From a phage: 64,000 nt of DNA. Position 1 is the stretch's first letter; each line of letters begins with the position of its first letter. The DNA is taken from the sequence record NC_101837.1; one strand, written 5' to 3'. A program made the translations under genes and the position numbers. Under the pieces are notes generated by a model. It did no database searches. It was not told the origin of the DNA and saw only the letters and a list, made by a program, of their open reading frames with translations. This document shows, one piece after another, positions 6 to 33,502 of this stretch.

Positions 6-800
6 TTGCACACAATTAAGTGTAAAGCTAATGCAGTCCTTAATTATCTCGGTATTCCGGAAGATCGGTGCGTGGGGGTACTTGGAGGCACAGGTAATTT
101 CAGACTAGATCTTCCCATGCCGGAAAGATATAAAGCCAACCGTAACAATACTCTTCGACCACTGCTGCTTGGAGATGCAAGACAGTATCTCCAAAAGCAG
201 TATAATGCTCAAGTGATCAACGGTATCGAGGCTGACGACTGGTTAGCTATCCAGCAATTTGAAGGTTGGAACCACTACCAAAAAACAGGTAAGTTCAACA
301 AGTTTATTATCTCTATTGATAAGGACCAAAGAACACTACCGGGGCTTGTGTTCGATCCCATGCGAAACGATAAGGGAGATTTTGTAAGAGAAACCCCTAT
401 GCTGATCGATAACGGTATGGGGAACATCTTCATGAAGCCTAATGGAGAGGTTGGTGGTTACGGAATGCTGTTCTTCGGATACCAAATGCTGTGTGGTGAC
501 TCTGCTGACAACATTAAGCCGTATCAAGGACTTATCGGTAAGGGTAAGTTCGGAGATGCCTCAGCATTCTACCTACTGTCTCAGTGCAGCACTCCAAAGG
601 AGATGTGGGTGGCTATTATTGATCAGTACAAGAAGTGGTTCCCAAAAGGTGTTGTTAAGTATACTGACTTCAATGGTATTGATCGTAGAATTTCCGTAGG
701 TCAGTGGATGAGTATAATTTTTGACTGTTTGTATATGAAGCGAACATTCAATGATCAAACAAAACTTGTTAACGTTCTTAGAAATGTTGGAGCAATTTGA
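6..800 (+). CDS. 5'-3' exonuclease / flap endonuclease, C-terminal part; gene starts upstream of window
   Basis: GIEADD acidic motif and H3TH-like GDSADNIKPYQGLIGKGK; reading frame is open to the window edge. Confidence 0.6.
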   Translation: MHTIKCKANAVLNYLGIPEDRCVGVLGGTGNFRLDLPMPERYKANRNNTLRPLLLGDARQYLQKQYNAQVINGIEADDWLAIQQFEGWNHYQKTGKFNKFIISIDKDQRTLPGLVFDPMRNDKGDFVRETPMLIDNGMGNIFMKPNGEVGGYGMLFFGYQMLCGDSADNIKPYQGLIGKGKFGDASAFYLLSQCSTPKEMWVAIIDQYKKWFPKGVVKYTDFNGIDRRISVGQWMSIIFDCLYMKRTFNDQTKLVNVLRNVGAI

Positions 801-3516: not shown

Positions 3517-4335
3517 TTGAGCAAGAAAGAGTCCAACGACAAATACTACACAAACCCTGAGTATGCAGAATATCTTGTTGGTAAAGTAAAAGATAAGTAT
3601 GGGAATTGTGCATACGTTGAGCCTTCTGCTGGAAGGGGTTCTTTTTCAAAACTATTTTCAGAGATACTGTCGTACGATTTAGTACCAGATCCTGAATTTG
3701 AAGGACCAACACCGTGCATTCAGGCAAACTTCTTGGAGGTGCATCCCAAGGCAGATGTCTTCATAGGTAACCCACCATTTGGCAAGAATTCATCCTTAGC
3801 TTGCAAATTCTTTAACCATTGTGCATCATTGCTAGAGCTTGGAGGGGCTATAGCCTTCATCTTGCCACGGACATTTGAAAAAATATTTTTTGCAAACAAA
3901 CTGGACATGTCGATGCACCTTGTCTACAGCGAAAGGTGCCCTAAGAATTCGTTTTTACTTAATGGCAAACCTTATGACGTGCCATGTGTTTTCCAAATTT
4001 GGGAGAAAAAGGCGTGCAATAGGGATCCTGTAGAGATTGGAGAGAATAAGTTATTTTCTTTTAGCACACCAGATGACTACGACTTCTGTGTAAGACGTGT
4101 TGGGTATAATGCTGGAAAAGTATTGGGGGATGATGACCCAAAATCTGAAGAATCAACATATTTCATAAAATCTTTAGTTGACGGTGTTGACAGAGTGTTT
4201 GCTGAATGCTATTCTTCTTTTCAAGAAGAAGCAGGTAAGACTGCTGGAATGAAGAGTATAGGTAAGAAAGAACTACAATACATTTTGGAGACCAGGTATG
4301 ATCAAAAGCATAGACTTGACCAAAGAACTTACTGA
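3517..4335 (+). CDS. DNA N6-adenine methyltransferase (gamma-class); start reassigned to in-frame TTG after GGAGG
   Basis: Motif X YYTNPEYA, motif I YVEPSAGRGSF, motif IV GNPPFG; the ORF-track start lies inside the upstream terminator. Confidence 0.6.
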   Translation: MSKKESNDKYYTNPEYAEYLVGKVKDKYGNCAYVEPSAGRGSFSKLFSEILSYDLVPDPEFEGPTPCIQANFLEVHPKADVFIGNPPFGKNSSLACKFFNHCASLLELGGAIAFILPRTFEKIFFANKLDMSMHLVYSERCPKNSFLLNGKPYDVPCVFQIWEKKACNRDPVEIGENKLFSFSTPDDYDFCVRRVGYNAGKVLGDDDPKSEESTYFIKSLVDGVDRVFAECYSSFQEEAGKTAGMKSIGKKELQYILETRYDQKHRLDQRTY

Positions 4336-20376: not shown

Positions 20377-20610
20377 ATGAAAGTTAAATTTCTTACAGAT
20401 TTAGGGTACCCTTCCTTGGTTGACTGTGTTGGTAAAATTGTGGAAGCAAAACGGCTATCTGCAAACGAGAATGTTGTCCTGGTTAAAGGGAAGGATTTAC
20501 TAGCTGCAGGTGCAGAGTCTGGCAGGATCTCTCCTGATTATATGTATTACCTATCTTTAAGTAATCTGCCAGAGCGAGGCGGTAAAGGCCTTGAAGTTGT
20601 GGAGGAGTGA
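20377..20610 (+). CDS. small acidic protein, paralog family A
   Basis: MKVKFL..., VLVKGKDLLAAGA, C-terminal EVVEE. Confidence 0.5.
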   Translation: MKVKFLTDLGYPSLVDCVGKIVEAKRLSANENVVLVKGKDLLAAGAESGRISPDYMYYLSLSNLPERGGKGLEVVEE

Positions 20611-23657: not shown

Positions 23658-23939
23658 ATGAAAAAGATTAACAGTAGTGAAGTAGAGTTTAAACTTGTCG
23701 GAAAAGGCACTTACTGGGAAGTTCGTCAAAAGGTATATTTGTTCGGTCTTATTCCCTACTGGTCTAAATTCTACTGGGGAGCTAACGAGTTGGGAAGATA
23801 CGCCACCAAATCAATGGCACTTATTGGTATAGCAGAGTACATTGCAGCCCGAGACAGGGTTGGAACCACTTATTACTACACTGCTGACGATATTCGTAAC
23901 AGTGTTTACGTCCCACAACCACCTGATGGAGACCGTTGA
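23658..23939 (+). CDS. hypothetical protein
   Basis: ATG after GGAGGGAG RBS (ORF-track start 23652 is TTG). Confidence 0.45.
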   Translation: MKKINSSEVEFKLVGKGTYWEVRQKVYLFGLIPYWSKFYWGANELGRYATKSMALIGIAEYIAARDRVGTTYYYTADDIRNSVYVPQPPDGDR

Positions 23940-24163
23940 TGAAAGTTAAAGTTTTAGATTCAAGCTTCTATATTGGTCAGGAGCCTTTAGTAGGAAAAGT
24001 GTTTACTGCTGTCCCTAACGAAGATTACCCTGACCTTTTAAAAATAAAAGGAGCAGATCTTATTGCCGCTGGTGCATCTCAGGAATGCTTTGACAGTCAG
24101 TGGACCTATAACTTTGCCCTAGGTGAGGATGTAGAGGTAGTGGAGGACGATCATGAAGGTTAA
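23939..24163 (+). CDS. small acidic protein, paralog family A
   Basis: MKVKVLDSSFYIGQ..., KGADLIAAGA, C-terminal EVVEDD. Confidence 0.5.
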   Translation: MKVKVLDSSFYIGQEPLVGKVFTAVPNEDYPDLLKIKGADLIAAGASQECFDSQWTYNFALGEDVEVVEDDHEG

Positions 24164-24407
24164 AATTCTTGATTCTAACGTCTACTTGGGACAATCCTTC
24201 CTGAATGGAAAGGTCGTTCCTGCGGTATACTTTGAAGGGTTGCCGTGGGATGATCCTGTGCGGCAACATCACAGTTATGTAGGCCACAACGTGGTGTTTA
24301 TCTTGGGATCAGACCTGATCACCGCTGGTGCACCTGAATATTATTTCGGGGAAGAGTCCTACTATGCCTTTGGGGTAGGGTCAGATGCAGATATTGTAGA
24401 GCTGTGA
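24153..24407 (+). CDS. small acidic protein, paralog family A (tandem duplicate of 23939-24163)
   Basis: MKVKILDSNVYLGQ..., GSDLITAGA, C-terminal DIVEL. Confidence 0.5.
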   Translation: MKVKILDSNVYLGQSFLNGKVVPAVYFEGLPWDDPVRQHHSYVGHNVVFILGSDLITAGAPEYYFGEESYYAFGVGSDADIVEL

Positions 24408-24419
24408 TGGGTAACCGTT

Positions 24420-24818
24420 GTGAAAAATAAACTGTTTAAAGTTACAATGAAAATTCGCGGGGCTTGGAGCGTAAAGCAAGGGCGTATCCCAGAATTTGAG
24501 AAAGACTTCTACGTAGTCTCCACCTCGGAGGAGGCTGCATGCTGGCAGGCTGGCTATGCATATGCAAGAACCTGGTACGAAGGATACCAGACTGGTGGCT
24601 ATGACGGAGAAATTATCAGCAAGGGTGTAGAAGAAATTAATGTGTTGACAAGTGAAAAAGTTTTTGTTATAGTGCATCCAGATTCCAGAGTGAAGCATTA
24701 CTGGAATGCCAGAACAAAAACTTGGACACCGTTTGCAGATTCTGCTACACCACTTTTAAACCAGAAAGCTCTTGACTCTGTCCCGAGCTATGGGGTTGTT
24801 GAAGAAAAGCTAAACTGA
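24420..24818 (+). CDS. hypothetical protein, paralog family B (start uncertain)
   Basis: Shares EKVFVIVHP.S...YW......WTP block with 26625-27020. Confidence 0.45.
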   Translation: MKNKLFKVTMKIRGAWSVKQGRIPEFEKDFYVVSTSEEAACWQAGYAYARTWYEGYQTGGYDGEIISKGVEEINVLTSEKVFVIVHPDSRVKHYWNARTKTWTPFADSATPLLNQKALDSVPSYGVVEEKLN

Positions 24819-24835
24819 AACGGTGAGGTACTAAC

Positions 24836-25126
24836 ATGATGGATTTAGTTCTAGACACTGATAACACCGGAGCGTTTAAAAAGGATGGTGTAACAAGCGT
24901 TGACCAATCATTCCCTGCCAAGATTGACTCAAAATGGACCTACAAGTTTGATGGAGAGATCTTCGCAAATGATGAGAAGGTTGTAGATGCTGCAGCCATT
25001 TTGAACGCTCTAGGGTACGACCCTGTGAATTCTTTGATCAAGGATCCTGTTGAGTTTGCAGAGTATGTTCGAAAAATGGCAGATCTTGCTGTGGATATTT
25101 TAAAAACTATCGACAACAATCTGTAA
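24836..25126 (+). CDS. hypothetical acidic protein
   Basis: 96 aa, GGTGAGG RBS. Confidence 0.45.
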   Translation: MMDLVLDTDNTGAFKKDGVTSVDQSFPAKIDSKWTYKFDGEIFANDEKVVDAAAILNALGYDPVNSLIKDPVEFAEYVRKMADLAVDILKTIDNNL

Positions 25127-25132
25127 AAACTG

Positions 25133-25161
25133 TTGACACAACGCTTCAGATTTAGTATCAT
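25133..25161 (+). promoter_or_regulatory. sigma70-like promoter upstream of HPF-like gene
   Basis: TTGACA-17 nt-TATCAT. Confidence 0.5.
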
Positions 25162-25208
25162 TGTTTTCAAAGAGGGTTTGGTTCCCTCTTCTTTAAAAGG
25201 AACACGTT

Positions 25209-25526
25209 ATGCAAATTGAAATCACTGGCAACGTAGAAATCACTGAAGGTATGGTGTCTTTCATTTCCCACAAAATGTCTAAGCTGGAGCGTTTGCATCC
25301 CTCTGCCAACTATGCACGTGTGAGTGTAAAAGTTGAAAATGATCACCAGGAAGTTATGGCGTTCATTTTTGACAATTCTGGAAAAGAAGTTATTGCCAAA
25401 GCTAAAGGCAGTGATGCTTACGAGGCAACTGACCGTATGGTAGATGTTGCAGCACGTCAACTGGCTAAATGCGGTGGAAAGAGAGGTAAGGGGAAAGGCA
25501 AAGTAAAGATTGACTTTAGAGAATGA
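25209..25526 (+). CDS. hpf: ribosome hibernation promoting factor / RaiA (YfiA) family homolog
   Basis: MQIEITGNVEITEGM...KLE...VKVEN...KAKGSDAYEATDRMVDVAARQLAK matches the HPF/RaiA family pattern along its length, as recalled (not computed). Confidence 0.75.
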   Translation: MQIEITGNVEITEGMVSFISHKMSKLERLHPSANYARVSVKVENDHQEVMAFIFDNSGKEVIAKAKGSDAYEATDRMVDVAARQLAKCGGKRGKGKGKVKIDFRE

Positions 25527-25535
25527 GGTGCTACA

Positions 25536-25637
25536 ATGGGTGTGATCAAGAAATTAGTCCCAAATGTAGAGATTGCATGCTTTGAAATTATGTTTGCAAT
25601 CGCAGTTGTAGTTAATGTGTTAGGTTACGGCTATTAA
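25536..25637 (+). CDS. 33-aa hydrophobic micro-protein (not in ORF track)
   Basis: ATG after GAGGTG RBS; one predicted TM helix. Confidence 0.3.
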   Translation: MGVIKKLVPNVEIACFEIMFAIAVVVNVLGYGY

Positions 25638-25663
25638 TATCAAATAATTGAGGAGACCTCTAA

Positions 25664-25933
25664 ATGAAAATTAAATTATTCAAAACTGAGCTGGCAGACA
25701 AAAACTGTGGACTGGTTGAAGGTATGATTGTCGAAGCACAACCAGTTGACTATATGAAGGTGGTTCGTGATGCCCTGGGTGAAGGTTTTGATCTGATGGA
25801 GCCAGCTCTGCGAGAAGATGTTATCGAGATGGCTAAAAAGCACACACCTGAAGGCATGGTGGTGTTTGTTGCACCGGGTAACGGAGAAGAGTTGATTGTA
25901 ACTCCGGATGTGTATGAGATTGTAGAGGAATAA
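25664..25933 (+). CDS. small acidic protein, paralog family A
   Basis: MKIKLFKTE..., C-terminal YEIVEE. Confidence 0.5.
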   Translation: MKIKLFKTELADKNCGLVEGMIVEAQPVDYMKVVRDALGEGFDLMEPALREDVIEMAKKHTPEGMVVFVAPGNGEELIVTPDVYEIVEE

Positions 25934-26024
25934 TCCTGCTTGGATTAGCATACTTCCTCGATAAGGAAGGTTTGTAATTATTTGTGGGAAAGGAATCCCA
26001 ATCTCTTACCAGAGGTGATACTAT

Positions 26025-26288
26025 ATGATTGTTTATTTTAAAACTTCAGGTGGATACCCTGATTCTCAAAGCTTGATCGGAAAAACGTGCACAGCATACT
26101 CACCTCTTGATGAGGAGGTAGGCGATATTCTACGAAATATGTATCGGATTGATCCTCAAGAAGCTTTTGATCAAAACCTTGTATTTGTCAAGGGCTCAGA
26201 CATGAAGTCTTTGGGAGCATTCCCTGAAGCAGATGATGATGCCGTTTATTCGTTCATGACCCCTTTTGAAGCTATGGTTGTTGGGTGA
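26025..26288 (+). CDS. small acidic protein, family A-like
   Basis: VFVKGSDMKSLGA core. Confidence 0.45.
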   Translation: MIVYFKTSGGYPDSQSLIGKTCTAYSPLDEEVGDILRNMYRIDPQEAFDQNLVFVKGSDMKSLGAFPEADDDAVYSFMTPFEAMVVG

Positions 26289-26292
26289 TAAT

Positions 26293-26625
26293 ATGAAAGT
26301 ACGCTTTATTGGTGAAACAATTCCTGTGCATCTCCGGTCGCCTGAGGATTCTGCAGATCTTGCATCTCAAAAGGCGAGAGGTTATGATAAGAAAGTAACC
26401 TCAACTGATGTAGTGCTTGAGGCTACTAGTCTACCTGACCCTGCTGCATTCTTTAATCATTATGGGTACTATTTCAGCAATCTGATGAATATCGGTGAGC
26501 TTGTGTTTATTAGTGGTGGAGAAATTGTTAGCAAGCTTGGCGGCGATCCGGATATCTTTCATGAAACCTGTCCTTTTGCATTTGTAGTAGGTTCAGATGT
26601 GGAAGTTATTGAGGAGGTGCGGTAA
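26293..26625 (+). CDS. small acidic protein, family A-like
   Basis: MKVRFIGE..., C-terminal VEVIEEVR. Confidence 0.45.
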   Translation: MKVRFIGETIPVHLRSPEDSADLASQKARGYDKKVTSTDVVLEATSLPDPAAFFNHYGYYFSNLMNIGELVFISGGEIVSKLGGDPDIFHETCPFAFVVGSDVEVIEEVR

Positions 26626-27020
26626 TGGTAAGCCTATACCGTGTTGAGTATAGCTCAGATACTGTATACAACGTAAGAAGCAAAGATCGCAGCGACAGAG
26701 TGCAAGAAATGTATGTTCTTGCCGACAGTCCGTTATCTGCAGCGTTCAAGGCAGGGGCTCTTGCATCTCGTTGGAAATTTGAAGGTGGATCTTTCTATGA
26801 AGAAACCCTTGAAGATTCTGTTGTTATTTCTTCTGTAGAGGTTTCAGATGACTACGAAGGGAAAAAGTTCGTAATGCGGCACCCACACAGCAACATTGCG
26901 TACTACTGGGATGTTCTGAACAACGAGTGGACCCCAGATCTTCAGAAGGCTACTGTGCTAACACCGTTTTTGGCAGATAAGTTCCCACCAGAAGGTAATT
27001 TATCCGCACTGTTTCAGTAA
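26625..27020 (+). CDS. hypothetical protein, paralog family B
   Basis: KKFVMRHPHSNIAYYWDVLNNEWTP block shared with 24420-24818. Confidence 0.45.
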   Translation: MVSLYRVEYSSDTVYNVRSKDRSDRVQEMYVLADSPLSAAFKAGALASRWKFEGGSFYEETLEDSVVISSVEVSDDYEGKKFVMRHPHSNIAYYWDVLNNEWTPDLQKATVLTPFLADKFPPEGNLSALFQ

Positions 27021-31019: not shown

Positions 31020-32549
31020 CACACAATTAGCTGCCCGGCTAAAGTGCTGGAAGCACCTATAACACATCTTTCAACTAAATTTCCTACCACCACAATCACT
31101 TACCTCCCACACATGACTGTTTGCTTGTTTAGTGAGCAGTCATGCCTTGACATTCTTGCCTATCTTGATAAAATTAAGTTCTTCTCTTTTCTTTTACCGA
31201 GTAATTCGGGTTTTCTGTTCTCTTCGGTTTGAAGGGGTATGGAGATACACCTGAGTGAACAGGGTGAACAACCGAACCTTTGGCTATGGCATTAGCATGG
31301 CGAAGCGGACGGGTGACGAAAGAGGGGCCGGAGGACACCAGTCACTGCCATATGATATATGGGTGATAACCTGAAGAGTCTGAATAAGTGTTTAAGTACC
31401 AGTCAGAGGAAAAGGTGAATGGTAGCCGAAGGGGGATGGGGGGTTTCTTGTATCTTTAATTTGTATATTATGTATACACTTGTAAACCAATCTCATCTGA
31501 ATCTGTTTACCACACAAAGCGGATAGAGACAAATATCACCTATTAAACTTGAATTATTTATAGAAAATACCACAACACCAATTAAGTCTTTGATTTTAAA
31601 CACAAATCCTACAGATATTCAACCTCCATATTTAACATACTCGTAACATATTCCATACTCTACCTGTCTGATCAATTTACCCAACTACATCCCCATATTT
31701 TCCCTGTCTGTACTACCCCATCCCCGCCGGGAGTCCCGTCATATCTGGCTTTCCAGCAAATATCACACCCACAAATATCATTGCCTGAAGAGGGTTTCAT
31801 CCCATAATACATGCCTTACATGAAGAGCGCTTCATACACCACGTAAATTTTTTAATTGACCTCCCCGCCGCCGGAGAGGTTGGCTTTTCCCCACACAGAC
31901 CTGAAGAGTCAGCCAGAAATATCTGAACAGGTCCAGTTCTGCCTTGTCATGAGCCGTAGCGACTGGAGTGCTGCCAGGCGGACGGAATGGGAATACTTCT
32001 CATTCTTATAATAATTCTCAAATATCGAGGCAGTGAGGCAAATTAATAGGTGAGGCCGTTCACACAGTGGCACAACATTTGCAATCTATTTTGTGGGGGT
32101 GAATGAGAATACCTATCATTGTGAGAACTGTTATCATTACGGGCAATTTAACATAATACCCATTATGCGCACCACTGGCGATCCATACAGGGATTGATAA
32201 CATGAGTTACAGTTTACGCATATAACAATCATATTTCTTACTATTTGTGTGGGATATAGTTAGCAGCCGATAGATTAGATATTGACCTGTGGACTTCCAA
32301 CCGTCTAGACGTCTAAACGCCCACACAACAAGGATTATACATACATTACTGAATGTAAACAGGGCCGCAAAAATGCTACCATACCAGTTTGTAAATTTTT
32401 CATGCAGCACTTGACAAAGAGAGGAAAAACTTGTCTGACATGCTGGGCATACTTCACACCTTAAACATACTCAACACTGGATACAATAACAATTGTTACT
32501 ATTGCATGCCTCACTGTTCACGTATAGACTATTTGCTCAAAAATGATAA

Positions 32550-32569
32550 GCCATGCCATTCGTTTGCAT
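32550..32569. repeat. 20-bp direct repeat, copy 1 (GCCATGCCATTCGTTTGCAT)
   Basis: Exact 20-mer repeated at 32822-32841. Confidence 0.7.
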
Positions 32570-32654
32570 GATAACAATAACGATCAACAACAATAAAGAC
32601 TGAAATGATAACGTTGTTGATTTGACTGACTAACAATTAACAGGCTAATAATCT

Positions 32655-32798
32655 ATGACATAATATAAAAGCAGGGCAACTATTAGCAGATCTATAGTTG
32701 CCTTGCTTGTTATGTCATGATTAACTAAATACAAGGCAACTATGATCTGATTAATAGTTTGCAGACAAACTATCACGGGGGTGATGGTTACTGCTTTT
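32655..32798. repeat. iteron-like cluster bracketed by an 18-bp inverted repeat
   Basis: ATGACATAATATAAAAGCAG ... CTGCTTTTATATTATGTC arms enclose at least 5 copies of GGCAACTAT / ATAGTT(T)GCC in both orientations. Confidence 0.65.
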
Positions 32799-32821
32799 AT
32801 ATTATGTCGCGACTCCGTCGC

Positions 32822-32841
32822 GCCATGCCATTCGTTTGCAT
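32822..32841. repeat. 20-bp direct repeat, copy 2
   Basis: Identical to 32550-32569; followed by a further ATAGTTGCC copy. Confidence 0.7.
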
Positions 32842-33502
32842 AGTTGCCTTATTGTTACAGATAAAATAATTGTATTGTTAATTATTTCTTATCTTTCTAT
32901 TAGTCATCTAATGATTCCAGTTAGTATAGTAACGTACAGTAAACATTAGACGACTAAAGATTTCTCTGATTATGATAACTTGCCGTGACAATTTCAGACT
33001 GTTTACGAAAAATGTTGACACCTGAGCTGATTTATGTTATGCAATTTAAACGAATAATTATTTTATGCAGGTATTGACTATTCTGTTATCCTATGGTCGG
33101 AATAAATACTTAGCAGGCTATAGAATGGTGAGCGTACGTAAATTCTGAGATCTGTCGGCTATAGTTATACTCGATTTTTCACGTAGAACACGCTTTTTGG
33201 TTTGTGTAAGTGTATGACTTATAAAGATTTTTAGTTGTTGACAAGATATTGAAGATGTGCATCAGGTTAAATTTTGTGCAATAGCTGCATTACGTGCAAT
33301 TTTGGAAGGAAAACGGGTAAAAATAGCACCGCTACCACACAATGAAAGGTTATGCAATAGTTATTTTACATGTATATTTGTACAGTGTGTGGGATTGATG
33401 GCTCGTCAATTATTCCACTTGCCAGGTAGGGCCGTTTATGGTAGGGAGGAAGAGCAGACAAAAAGAAAGGGACCTAAGCCCCTTGATAATTCAGTTAAAA
33501 AA

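Follow-up and report, generated by a model that had tools for sequence, protein, structure and literature searches.

An HPF-like gene in an rV5-like Vequintavirus coliphage: promoter, conservation and candidate roles at the ribosome

Ribosome hibernation factors and the HPF of phage rV5

E. coli HPF lies between h30 and h44 of the 16S rRNA, occluding the mRNA path as well as the tRNA positions of the A and P sites (Beckert 2018). The C-terminal end of HPF runs along the path of the mRNA, where His95 stacks on G693 of h23 at the position of the first E-site codon nucleotide, and both Arg33 and Lys93 contact the E-site tRNA (Beckert 2018). RaiA binds the HPF site. Because its flexible tail is longer and reaches into the RMF site, ribosomes carrying RaiA cannot dimerise (PMC13152769). 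RMF, which is required for 100S ribosomes to form, is not seen until log phase has ended, and crude ribosomes prepared from stationary-phase cells contain the E. coli hibernation factors at detectable levels (PMC13152769).

The hpf gene of the rV5-like Vequintavirus coliphages is already described, and no discovery of it is added here. In the rV5 reference record (NC_011041) it is ORF 144, or rv5_gp139, similar to a Klebsiella sigma(54) modulation protein, and the same record carries its promoter as 'Sigma70-type promoter; P144'. Mizuno et al. 2019 (PMC6375957) placed rV5 HPF among the virus-encoded ribosome-associated proteins and grouped the coliphage sequences with gammaproteobacterial HPFs. 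They proposed that a viral HPF might compete with the cellular HPF, preventing dimers (PMC6375957). The gene was reported again in five further rV5-like phages (Mathieu et al. 2020). In the literature searched, we found no later functional studies on phage HPF.

For their experiment, Mizuno et al. placed rV5 HPF on pBAD24, expressed it in E. coli NM522 and harvested the cells at an OD600 of 1. Ribosomes were pelleted through a 500 mM NH4Cl sucrose cushion, and the 70S and 100S fractions were analyzed by mass spectrometry (PMC6375957). Peptides of rV5 HPF were present in the crude extract with none in the 70S and 100S fractions, and both the gradient profile and the 100S peak were unchanged by the protein (PMC6375957). 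The authors judged the result inconclusive, naming an inadequate growth phase, a true loss of binding, or dissociation in the salt wash (PMC6375957). We regard the experiment as uninformative about ribosome binding because of the pelleting in 500 mM NH4Cl, the use of cells at an OD600 of 1 with few vacant ribosomes and low RMF, and the authors' own caveats. The cultures did grow with inducer present, which argues against a strongly toxic shut-off of translation by rV5 HPF.

The hpf locus and its expression signals

The window is the whole 64,000-nt stretch of phage DNA that was analyzed (NC_101837.1). Over a 3-kb stretch around hpf, identity is 99.1% with Escherichia phage RudolfGeigy and 95-99% with about a hundred further rV5-like Vequintavirus phages. 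Of the 120 phage records matching the region, 118 carry the gene, under the labels 'ribosome hibernation factor', 'RaiA' and 'sigma 54 modulation factor'. The BASEL collection includes many Vequintavirus phages growing on E. coli K-12. In the bov10K2-type and NWU records, the true hpf appears as 'ATP-dependent protease La type I'. Eighteen 'Campylobacter phage' records (MG0656xx, e.g. MG065654 and MG065666), with C. jejuni as the host, are 95-99% identical to positions 24000..27000 of the window. On sequence grounds, the assignment of these records to C. jejuni looks doubtful.

A preliminary description of this DNA had proposed a 105-residue HPF/RaiA homologue with a family-type motif and a Lys/Gly-rich tail, preceded by its own TTGACA-17-TATCAT promoter. 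The ORF, the quoted motif (MQIEITGNVEIT...KLE...VSVKVE...AKGSDAYEATD...D..ARQLAK) and the tail are all present as claimed (Table 1). The gene is located within a long block of small phage genes, most of them uncharacterised.

Table 1. Features of the hpf region, in window coordinates
Feature	Position	Strand	Evidence or remark
Sigma-70-type promoter: -35 TTGACA (25133-25138), 17-nt spacer, -10 TATCAT (25156-25161)	25133..25161	+	Consensus scan
7-bp hairpin AAGAGGG-loop-CCCTCTT, predicted 5' UTR of hpf	25170..25190	+	Weak
Shine-Dalgarno AAGGA, 7 nt 5' of the hpf ATG	25197..25201	+	Direct read
hpf ORF, 105 codons/aa, ATG start	25209..25526	+	ORF list and direct read
S30AE/HPF core domain, residues 1-87 of hpf	25209..25469	+	PF02482, AlphaFold2, Foldseek, dN/dS
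Lys/Gly-rich tail CGGKRGKGKGKVKIDFRE (KCGGKRGKGKGKVKIDFRE), residues 88-105 and stop	25470..25526	+	Predicted disordered
33-aa hydrophobic ORF (MGVIKKLVPNVEIACFEIMFAIAVVVNVLGYGY), rv5_gp140 homologue, 10 nt 3' of the hpf stop	25536..25637	+	Annotated in rV5, FV3, JES2013 and MaxBurger
89-aa acidic ORF, rv5_gp141 homologue	25664..25933	+	Also conserved 3' of hpf in the sister clade
Terminator-like hairpin CTTCCTCGATAAGGAAG then GTTTGTAATT	25953..25969	+	Consensus scan alone, weak
Other TTGACA-N17-TANNAT sites	e.g. 17322, 21115, 30322	+	Pattern scan
Other TTGACA-N17-TANNAT sites	e.g. 34720, 51579, 51917, 52779	-	Pattern scan

The proposed promoter was borne out by a consensus scan and a shuffle test, and it is annotated in rV5. 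It matches the sigma-70 consensus at 11 of 12 positions and sits in an 82-nt gap downstream of the preceding gene. The pattern TTGACA-N17-TANNAT occurs at 11 sites in the 64-kb window against 0.38 expected from dinucleotide-preserving shuffles, a ~29-fold excess, and this number was equalled in none of 100 shuffles. The strand of the sites also tracks gene orientation. Given the excess and the strand agreement with the genes, the sites are not due to chance. The excess agrees with the 33 host-type promoters spread across the rV5 genome (Kropinski et al. 2013). From this near-consensus promoter of its own, we infer that hpf would be transcribed by the host sigma-70 RNA polymerase. Early expression is no more than plausible, as sigma-70-type promoters are found throughout the rV5 genome.

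The hairpin in the predicted 5' UTR was considered as a regulatory element and rejected. Its energy (MFE -9.9 kcal/mol, z = -0.77 against shuffles) is no better than that of shuffled sequence and it is not conserved, the stem being mismatched in the MaxBurger and A6-1 copies and missing in the sister clade introduced below. The hairpin is probably non-functional. Also set aside was an internal promoter-like sequence, TTGACT-16-TACAAT at 25510..25537. The last base of its -10 is the second base of the next ATG, which starts at 25536. We treated the match as chance or irrelevant.

Downstream of hpf, the 33-aa ORF has no Pfam match. It is kept in the Vequintavirus copies, whereas the sister clade has a promoter-like site and a hairpin instead. 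Since no terminator lies between them, the 33-aa ORF is probably co-transcribed with hpf. The 89-aa ORF is likely the last gene of the transcription unit, and the terminator-like hairpin that follows is a possible end of the unit. This 89-aa ORF is labelled 'sigma 54 modulation factor' in some relatives (naam_151, APCEc02_082 and A6-1), and a second copy of HPF was considered. It has no S30AE or other Pfam match and the label is a misannotation; it looks like a label shifted from the true hpf.

Small ORFs around hpf form paralogous families, with no Pfam match in any of them. They include a tandem pair with 40% identity and a more distant third copy (20377..20610, 23936..24163 and 24153..24407). 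A pair of 131/132-aa proteins with 28% identity is encoded one on each side of hpf (24420..24818 and 26625..27020). Further along the window, about 31300..33400, is an ORF-poor stretch with a GC content of 0.34-0.38 between convergent plus- and minus-strand gene blocks. The equivalent in the rV5 genome paper is the 'non-coding' region 104013-106618. No Rfam family, tRNA or tandem repeat was found in this stretch, and the same scans found nothing in the rest of the window.

Family membership, conservation and residue signature

The hpf product matched PF02482 (Ribosomal_S30AE) at 48.7 bits (E = 1.3e-12; gathering cut-off 23.7 bits) over profile positions 1-86 of 88. It also passed the HPF/YfiA family model TIGR00741 (46.4 bits, cut-off 40.9). 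Neither of the NCBIfam equivalog cut-offs was reached, with 55.6 bits against 125 for HPF (NF007780) and 17.2 bits against 158 for RaiA (NF007654). The best PDB sequence match was E. coli HPF (E = 5.5e-12), residues 1-89 aligning to 1-89. In the pairwise alignment that the preliminary description had suggested, phage HPF shares 43% identity with E. coli HPF over 88 residues and 25% with E. coli RaiA (YfiA); the PDB alignment bears out the E. coli HPF sequence used as far as residue 89.

An AlphaFold2 model built from a 26-sequence alignment has a mean pLDDT of 84, with the core above 90. Its elements (E2-7, H13-29, E33-43, E46-55, E60-67 and H70-89) follow the beta-alpha-beta-beta-beta-alpha order of the family, in which both helices pack against one side of a sheet of four strands. 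When the model was compared with the PDB by Foldseek, the best 37 matches were all HPF, RaiA or protein Y chains. TM scores normalised to the target were 0.88-0.92 against HPF structures, the top ones including V. cholerae HPF (TM 0.92, rmsd 1.1 A) and ribosome-bound E. coli HPF (6h4n_x; TM 0.89, rmsd 1.2 A). Weak matches to double-stranded-RNA-binding domains came at ranks 38, 43 and 45. Sequence and predicted fold together establish that the phage protein belongs to the HPF/RaiA superfamily, as had been proposed. Within the superfamily it is nearest the short HPF type; it is HPF-like and not an equivalog. Long HPFs (about 185 aa) have a second, C-terminal dimerisation domain, which is absent from the phage protein as it stops at residue 105.

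Large protein databases hold a sister clade (P0004) with an hpf product 63% identical to that of the window. Its members come from metagenomes and E. coli assemblies, on contigs of 124-137 kb, and in L003-L006, contigs of 16-126 kb from Logan/ENA assemblies, the gene is at 4001..4312. The phage collection searched has no member of this clade at E = 1e-3 or better. About one fifth of a 4-kb query aligns between sister-clade and Vequintavirus DNA, at ~72-80% identity, and the clade is a distinct Vequintavirus-like phage lineage. Its hpf is syntenic, flanked by homologues of the genes that flank the Vequintavirus copies. Upstream, the clade keeps the -35 block AAACTGTTGACACA and the 17-nt spacer, with a weaker -10, AATTAT, extended by TG-n.

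Among the Vequintavirus copies of hpf, dN/dS is 0.03-0.17 (Nei-Gojobori counts). Between the clades pS is 0.78, with synonymous sites saturated, and pN is 0.22 in the core. The same position in the sister clade, together with saturated synonymous sites against a core pN of 0.22, indicates that hpf is old in this phage lineage and maintained under purifying selection. It could in principle be a functionless passenger, a captured host gene without a role in infection, and rV5 HPF expressed alone left ribosome profiles unchanged and was not toxic. The selection data contradict this reading, as does retention of the gene in nearly all the related genomes (118/120), at the same position and with a TTGACA-17 promoter even in the synonymously saturated sister clade. 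We consider a passenger exceedingly improbable.

An exhaustive HMMER scan of 1.84 billion representatives returned just 23 proteins at E = 1e-3 or better, with no cellular relative above about 45% identity. The nearest cellular relatives are mostly metagenomic singletons, and the HPF of Thorsellia anophelis is 38% identical. A match to P0006, a PPC-repeat protein of 1160 aa with 8 matched stretches, was discarded as spurious. A recent transfer from the host was also rejected, given that cellular relatives reach at most about 45% identity and that the sister clade is saturated at synonymous sites. The lack of closer cellular relatives in the scan tempers the 2019 statement of a relatively recent transfer (PMC6375957). 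Acquisition long ago from a gammaproteobacterial-type hpf best explains these comparisons. A lytic phage needs active ribosomes, so genus-wide upkeep of a gene from a ribosome-silencing family is unexpected. The remaining interest of the locus is why a lytic phage genus conserves such a fold under strong purifying selection.

Phage HPF has the near-invariant family residues T12, K22, D69, Y71 and D75, and also K25, R83 and K87 in the helices (T12, K22 and K25 are T13, K23 and K26 in E. coli HPF numbering). Another 24 positions are identical across both phage clades yet rare among cellular homologues, including V16, A70, T74 and A81. V16 stands in place of R17 of E. coli HPF, at a position that is basic in about 74% of the aligned cellular homologues. 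The conserved K80, basic in about 74% as well, is V80 here and T80 in the sister clade. In both clades the D-M-Y motif is DAY (M70 to A), T74 replaces Ile and A81 replaces Leu. Phage HPF further has Ser for G58 and for R33 of E. coli HPF, the latter at a position variable across the family. With hydrophobic residues at two conserved basic positions and the DAY motif, the binding surface may be altered.

One reading of this signature is that ribosome binding was lost and that the protein now binds a phage mRNA, a tRNA or a protein partner. The 24 phage-specific positions, the scores below both the HPF and RaiA equivalog cut-offs and the weak fold matches to double-stranded-RNA-binding domains would fit, as would the finding that rV5 HPF was not on ribosomes (PMC6375957). 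However, the near-invariant family residues and most of the basic helix residues are kept, the closest structures (rmsd 1.1-1.2 A) are true HPFs, and the negative ribosome experiment was inconclusive according to its authors. Such a repurposed RNA binder seems improbable to us.

The C-terminal tail differs more between the clades than the core does. Its pN is 0.45 (0.22 in the core), and its sequence is not conserved between them; despite this change, it is basic in every copy of both clades. Residues 91-105 have a pLDDT below 50 in the AlphaFold2 model. Phage HPF has 18 residues after K87, compared to 8 in E. coli HPF and 26 in RaiA. The net charge of the tail is +6 (residues 87-105) or +5 (residues 88-105), versus +2 for the E. 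coli HPF tail and -4 for the RaiA tail, and the pI of the whole protein is 9.1 versus 6.5 for E. coli HPF. In APCEc02 (hpf at 401..706), a 1-nt insertion in a G run changes GGGGAAAGG to GGGGGAGAGG and results in a frameshifted tail ending RKKGKGERQSKD, still basic. The hpf match stops at residue 86 in APCEc02, Murica and YN3, with the insertion checked at the DNA level in APCEc02 alone. The insertion in APCEc02 may be genuine variation, or an error in sequencing the homopolymer.

Candidate roles and comparison with known systems

By analogy with the E. coli factors, we favor canonical binding in the 30S decoding channel with a RaiA-like outcome, to which we give a probability of roughly 0.55. 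The core of phage HPF would sit in the decoding channel of vacant, non-translating ribosomes. From there the flexible polybasic tail, which exceeds the E. coli HPF tail by ~10 residues, would follow the mRNA path further, in the direction of the platform region bound by RMF. Estimated from residue count, the extra length could cover a further ~30 A of the exit path. Idle ribosomes would then be held as inactive, nuclease-protected 70S monomers, with host HPF, RaiA and RMF kept off and 100S dimers not promoted. The lack of a 100S rise on expression of rV5 HPF fits a RaiA-like outcome.

The same observation would fit the anti-hibernation role explicitly proposed by Mizuno et al. 2019 (PMC6375957). 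The phage protein would occupy the HPF/RaiA site weakly and reversibly, or block RMF, and ribosomes of starved or stationary hosts would stay usable for phage mRNAs. Consistent with such a competitor, rV5 HPF was salt-labile on, or absent from, washed ribosomes, and the loss of two conserved basic core positions could lower affinity. The tail is in principle long enough to reach the RMF site, as that of RaiA is, and rV5-like phages are gut and sewage coliphages whose hosts often grow slowly. Yet a polybasic tail of charge +5 speaks for tighter rather than weaker binding to RNA. Translation is also blocked for as long as the decoding channel is occupied, and a net benefit would need a fast off-rate. 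We hold a competitor of this kind to be rather unlikely.

The nuclease protection assumed in the RaiA-like reading could alternatively be the function itself. While host mRNA decay frees ribosomes, phage HPF would fill the decoding centre of those that are idle and protect their 16S rRNA from host nucleases or from A-site abortive-infection toxins. Protection of ribosomes from nucleases by cellular hibernation factors is reported (10.1101/2025.11.04.686544), and RMF competes with RNase R (PMC13152769). The strong purifying selection on hpf would agree with a protective role, and blocks of small genes like that around hpf often hold takeover or counter-defence functions. Against this, the proposal is entirely an inference, phage HPF is not known to counter any defence system, and the Pfam searches found no defence-related genes among the neighbours of hpf. 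We give little credence to a shield as the main role.

A broader reading is that phage HPF is a diverged derivative whose polybasic tail fills both the mRNA exit path and the RMF site. It would prevent the host ribosomes of starved cells from entering the 100S and RaiA states, or guard the decoding centre against defence toxins or nucleases. We offer this as a tentative idea, doubtful as it stands; if true, the gene would be a viral counter-measure against ribosome dormancy.

To the published description of the gene, the present analysis adds the strength of selection, a sister clade with a TTGACA-17 promoter and a substitution signature common to both clades. It also adds a basic tail with a length between those of HPF and RaiA, and the finding of no cellular relative above about 45% identity.

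The closest known system is rV5 gp139/ORF 144 itself (YP_002003641, ABI79209). It is the same gene, with a 98% identical protein, the same neighbours and the same P144 promoter. The proteins differ by point changes in the tail alone, with GKRGK...FRE here and GKKGK...FGE in rV5. Other phage S30AE proteins (PHROG 8990), such as those of Cronobacter phage GAP32 and Xanthomonas jumbo phage XaC1, are also from large virulent phages. Phage HPF scores 233 bits to its own PHROG 12469 and 30 bits to PHROG 8990, and judging from sequence the PHROG 8990-type proteins appear to be separate acquisitions. The GAP32 protein was placed elsewhere in the tree by Mizuno et al. 2019 (PMC6375957).

Like phage HPF, E. 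coli HPF (YhbH; PDB 2rql, 4v8h and 6h4n) has the MQ.xITG start, the fold, K23, K26, R83, K87 and the D-x-Y motif. Unlike phage HPF, its tail is 10 residues shorter and far less basic, and it has R17, R33, M70 and K80 where the phage protein has V, S, A and V. The short HPFs (NF007780) are single-domain proteins of about 95 aa with a short C-terminus near the E-site codon, which the 105-aa phage protein does not fit. Short HPFs partner RMF and help to convert RMF-induced dimers to 100S, whereas rV5 HPF was without a discernible effect on 100S when tested where RMF is low (PMC6375957).

E. coli RaiA (YfiA, protein Y) has the same domain, and by analogy the same 30S site would be expected for phage HPF. 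Both proteins have a C-terminal extension beyond the length of HPF, and in RaiA this extension keeps RMF away and prevents 100S formation. The tail is acidic in RaiA (-4) and basic in the phage protein (+6 over residues 87-105), and the two proteins are 25% identical. With this identity, an equivalog score below the cut-off and the opposite tail charge, the public label 'RaiA' for the phage gene is imprecise.
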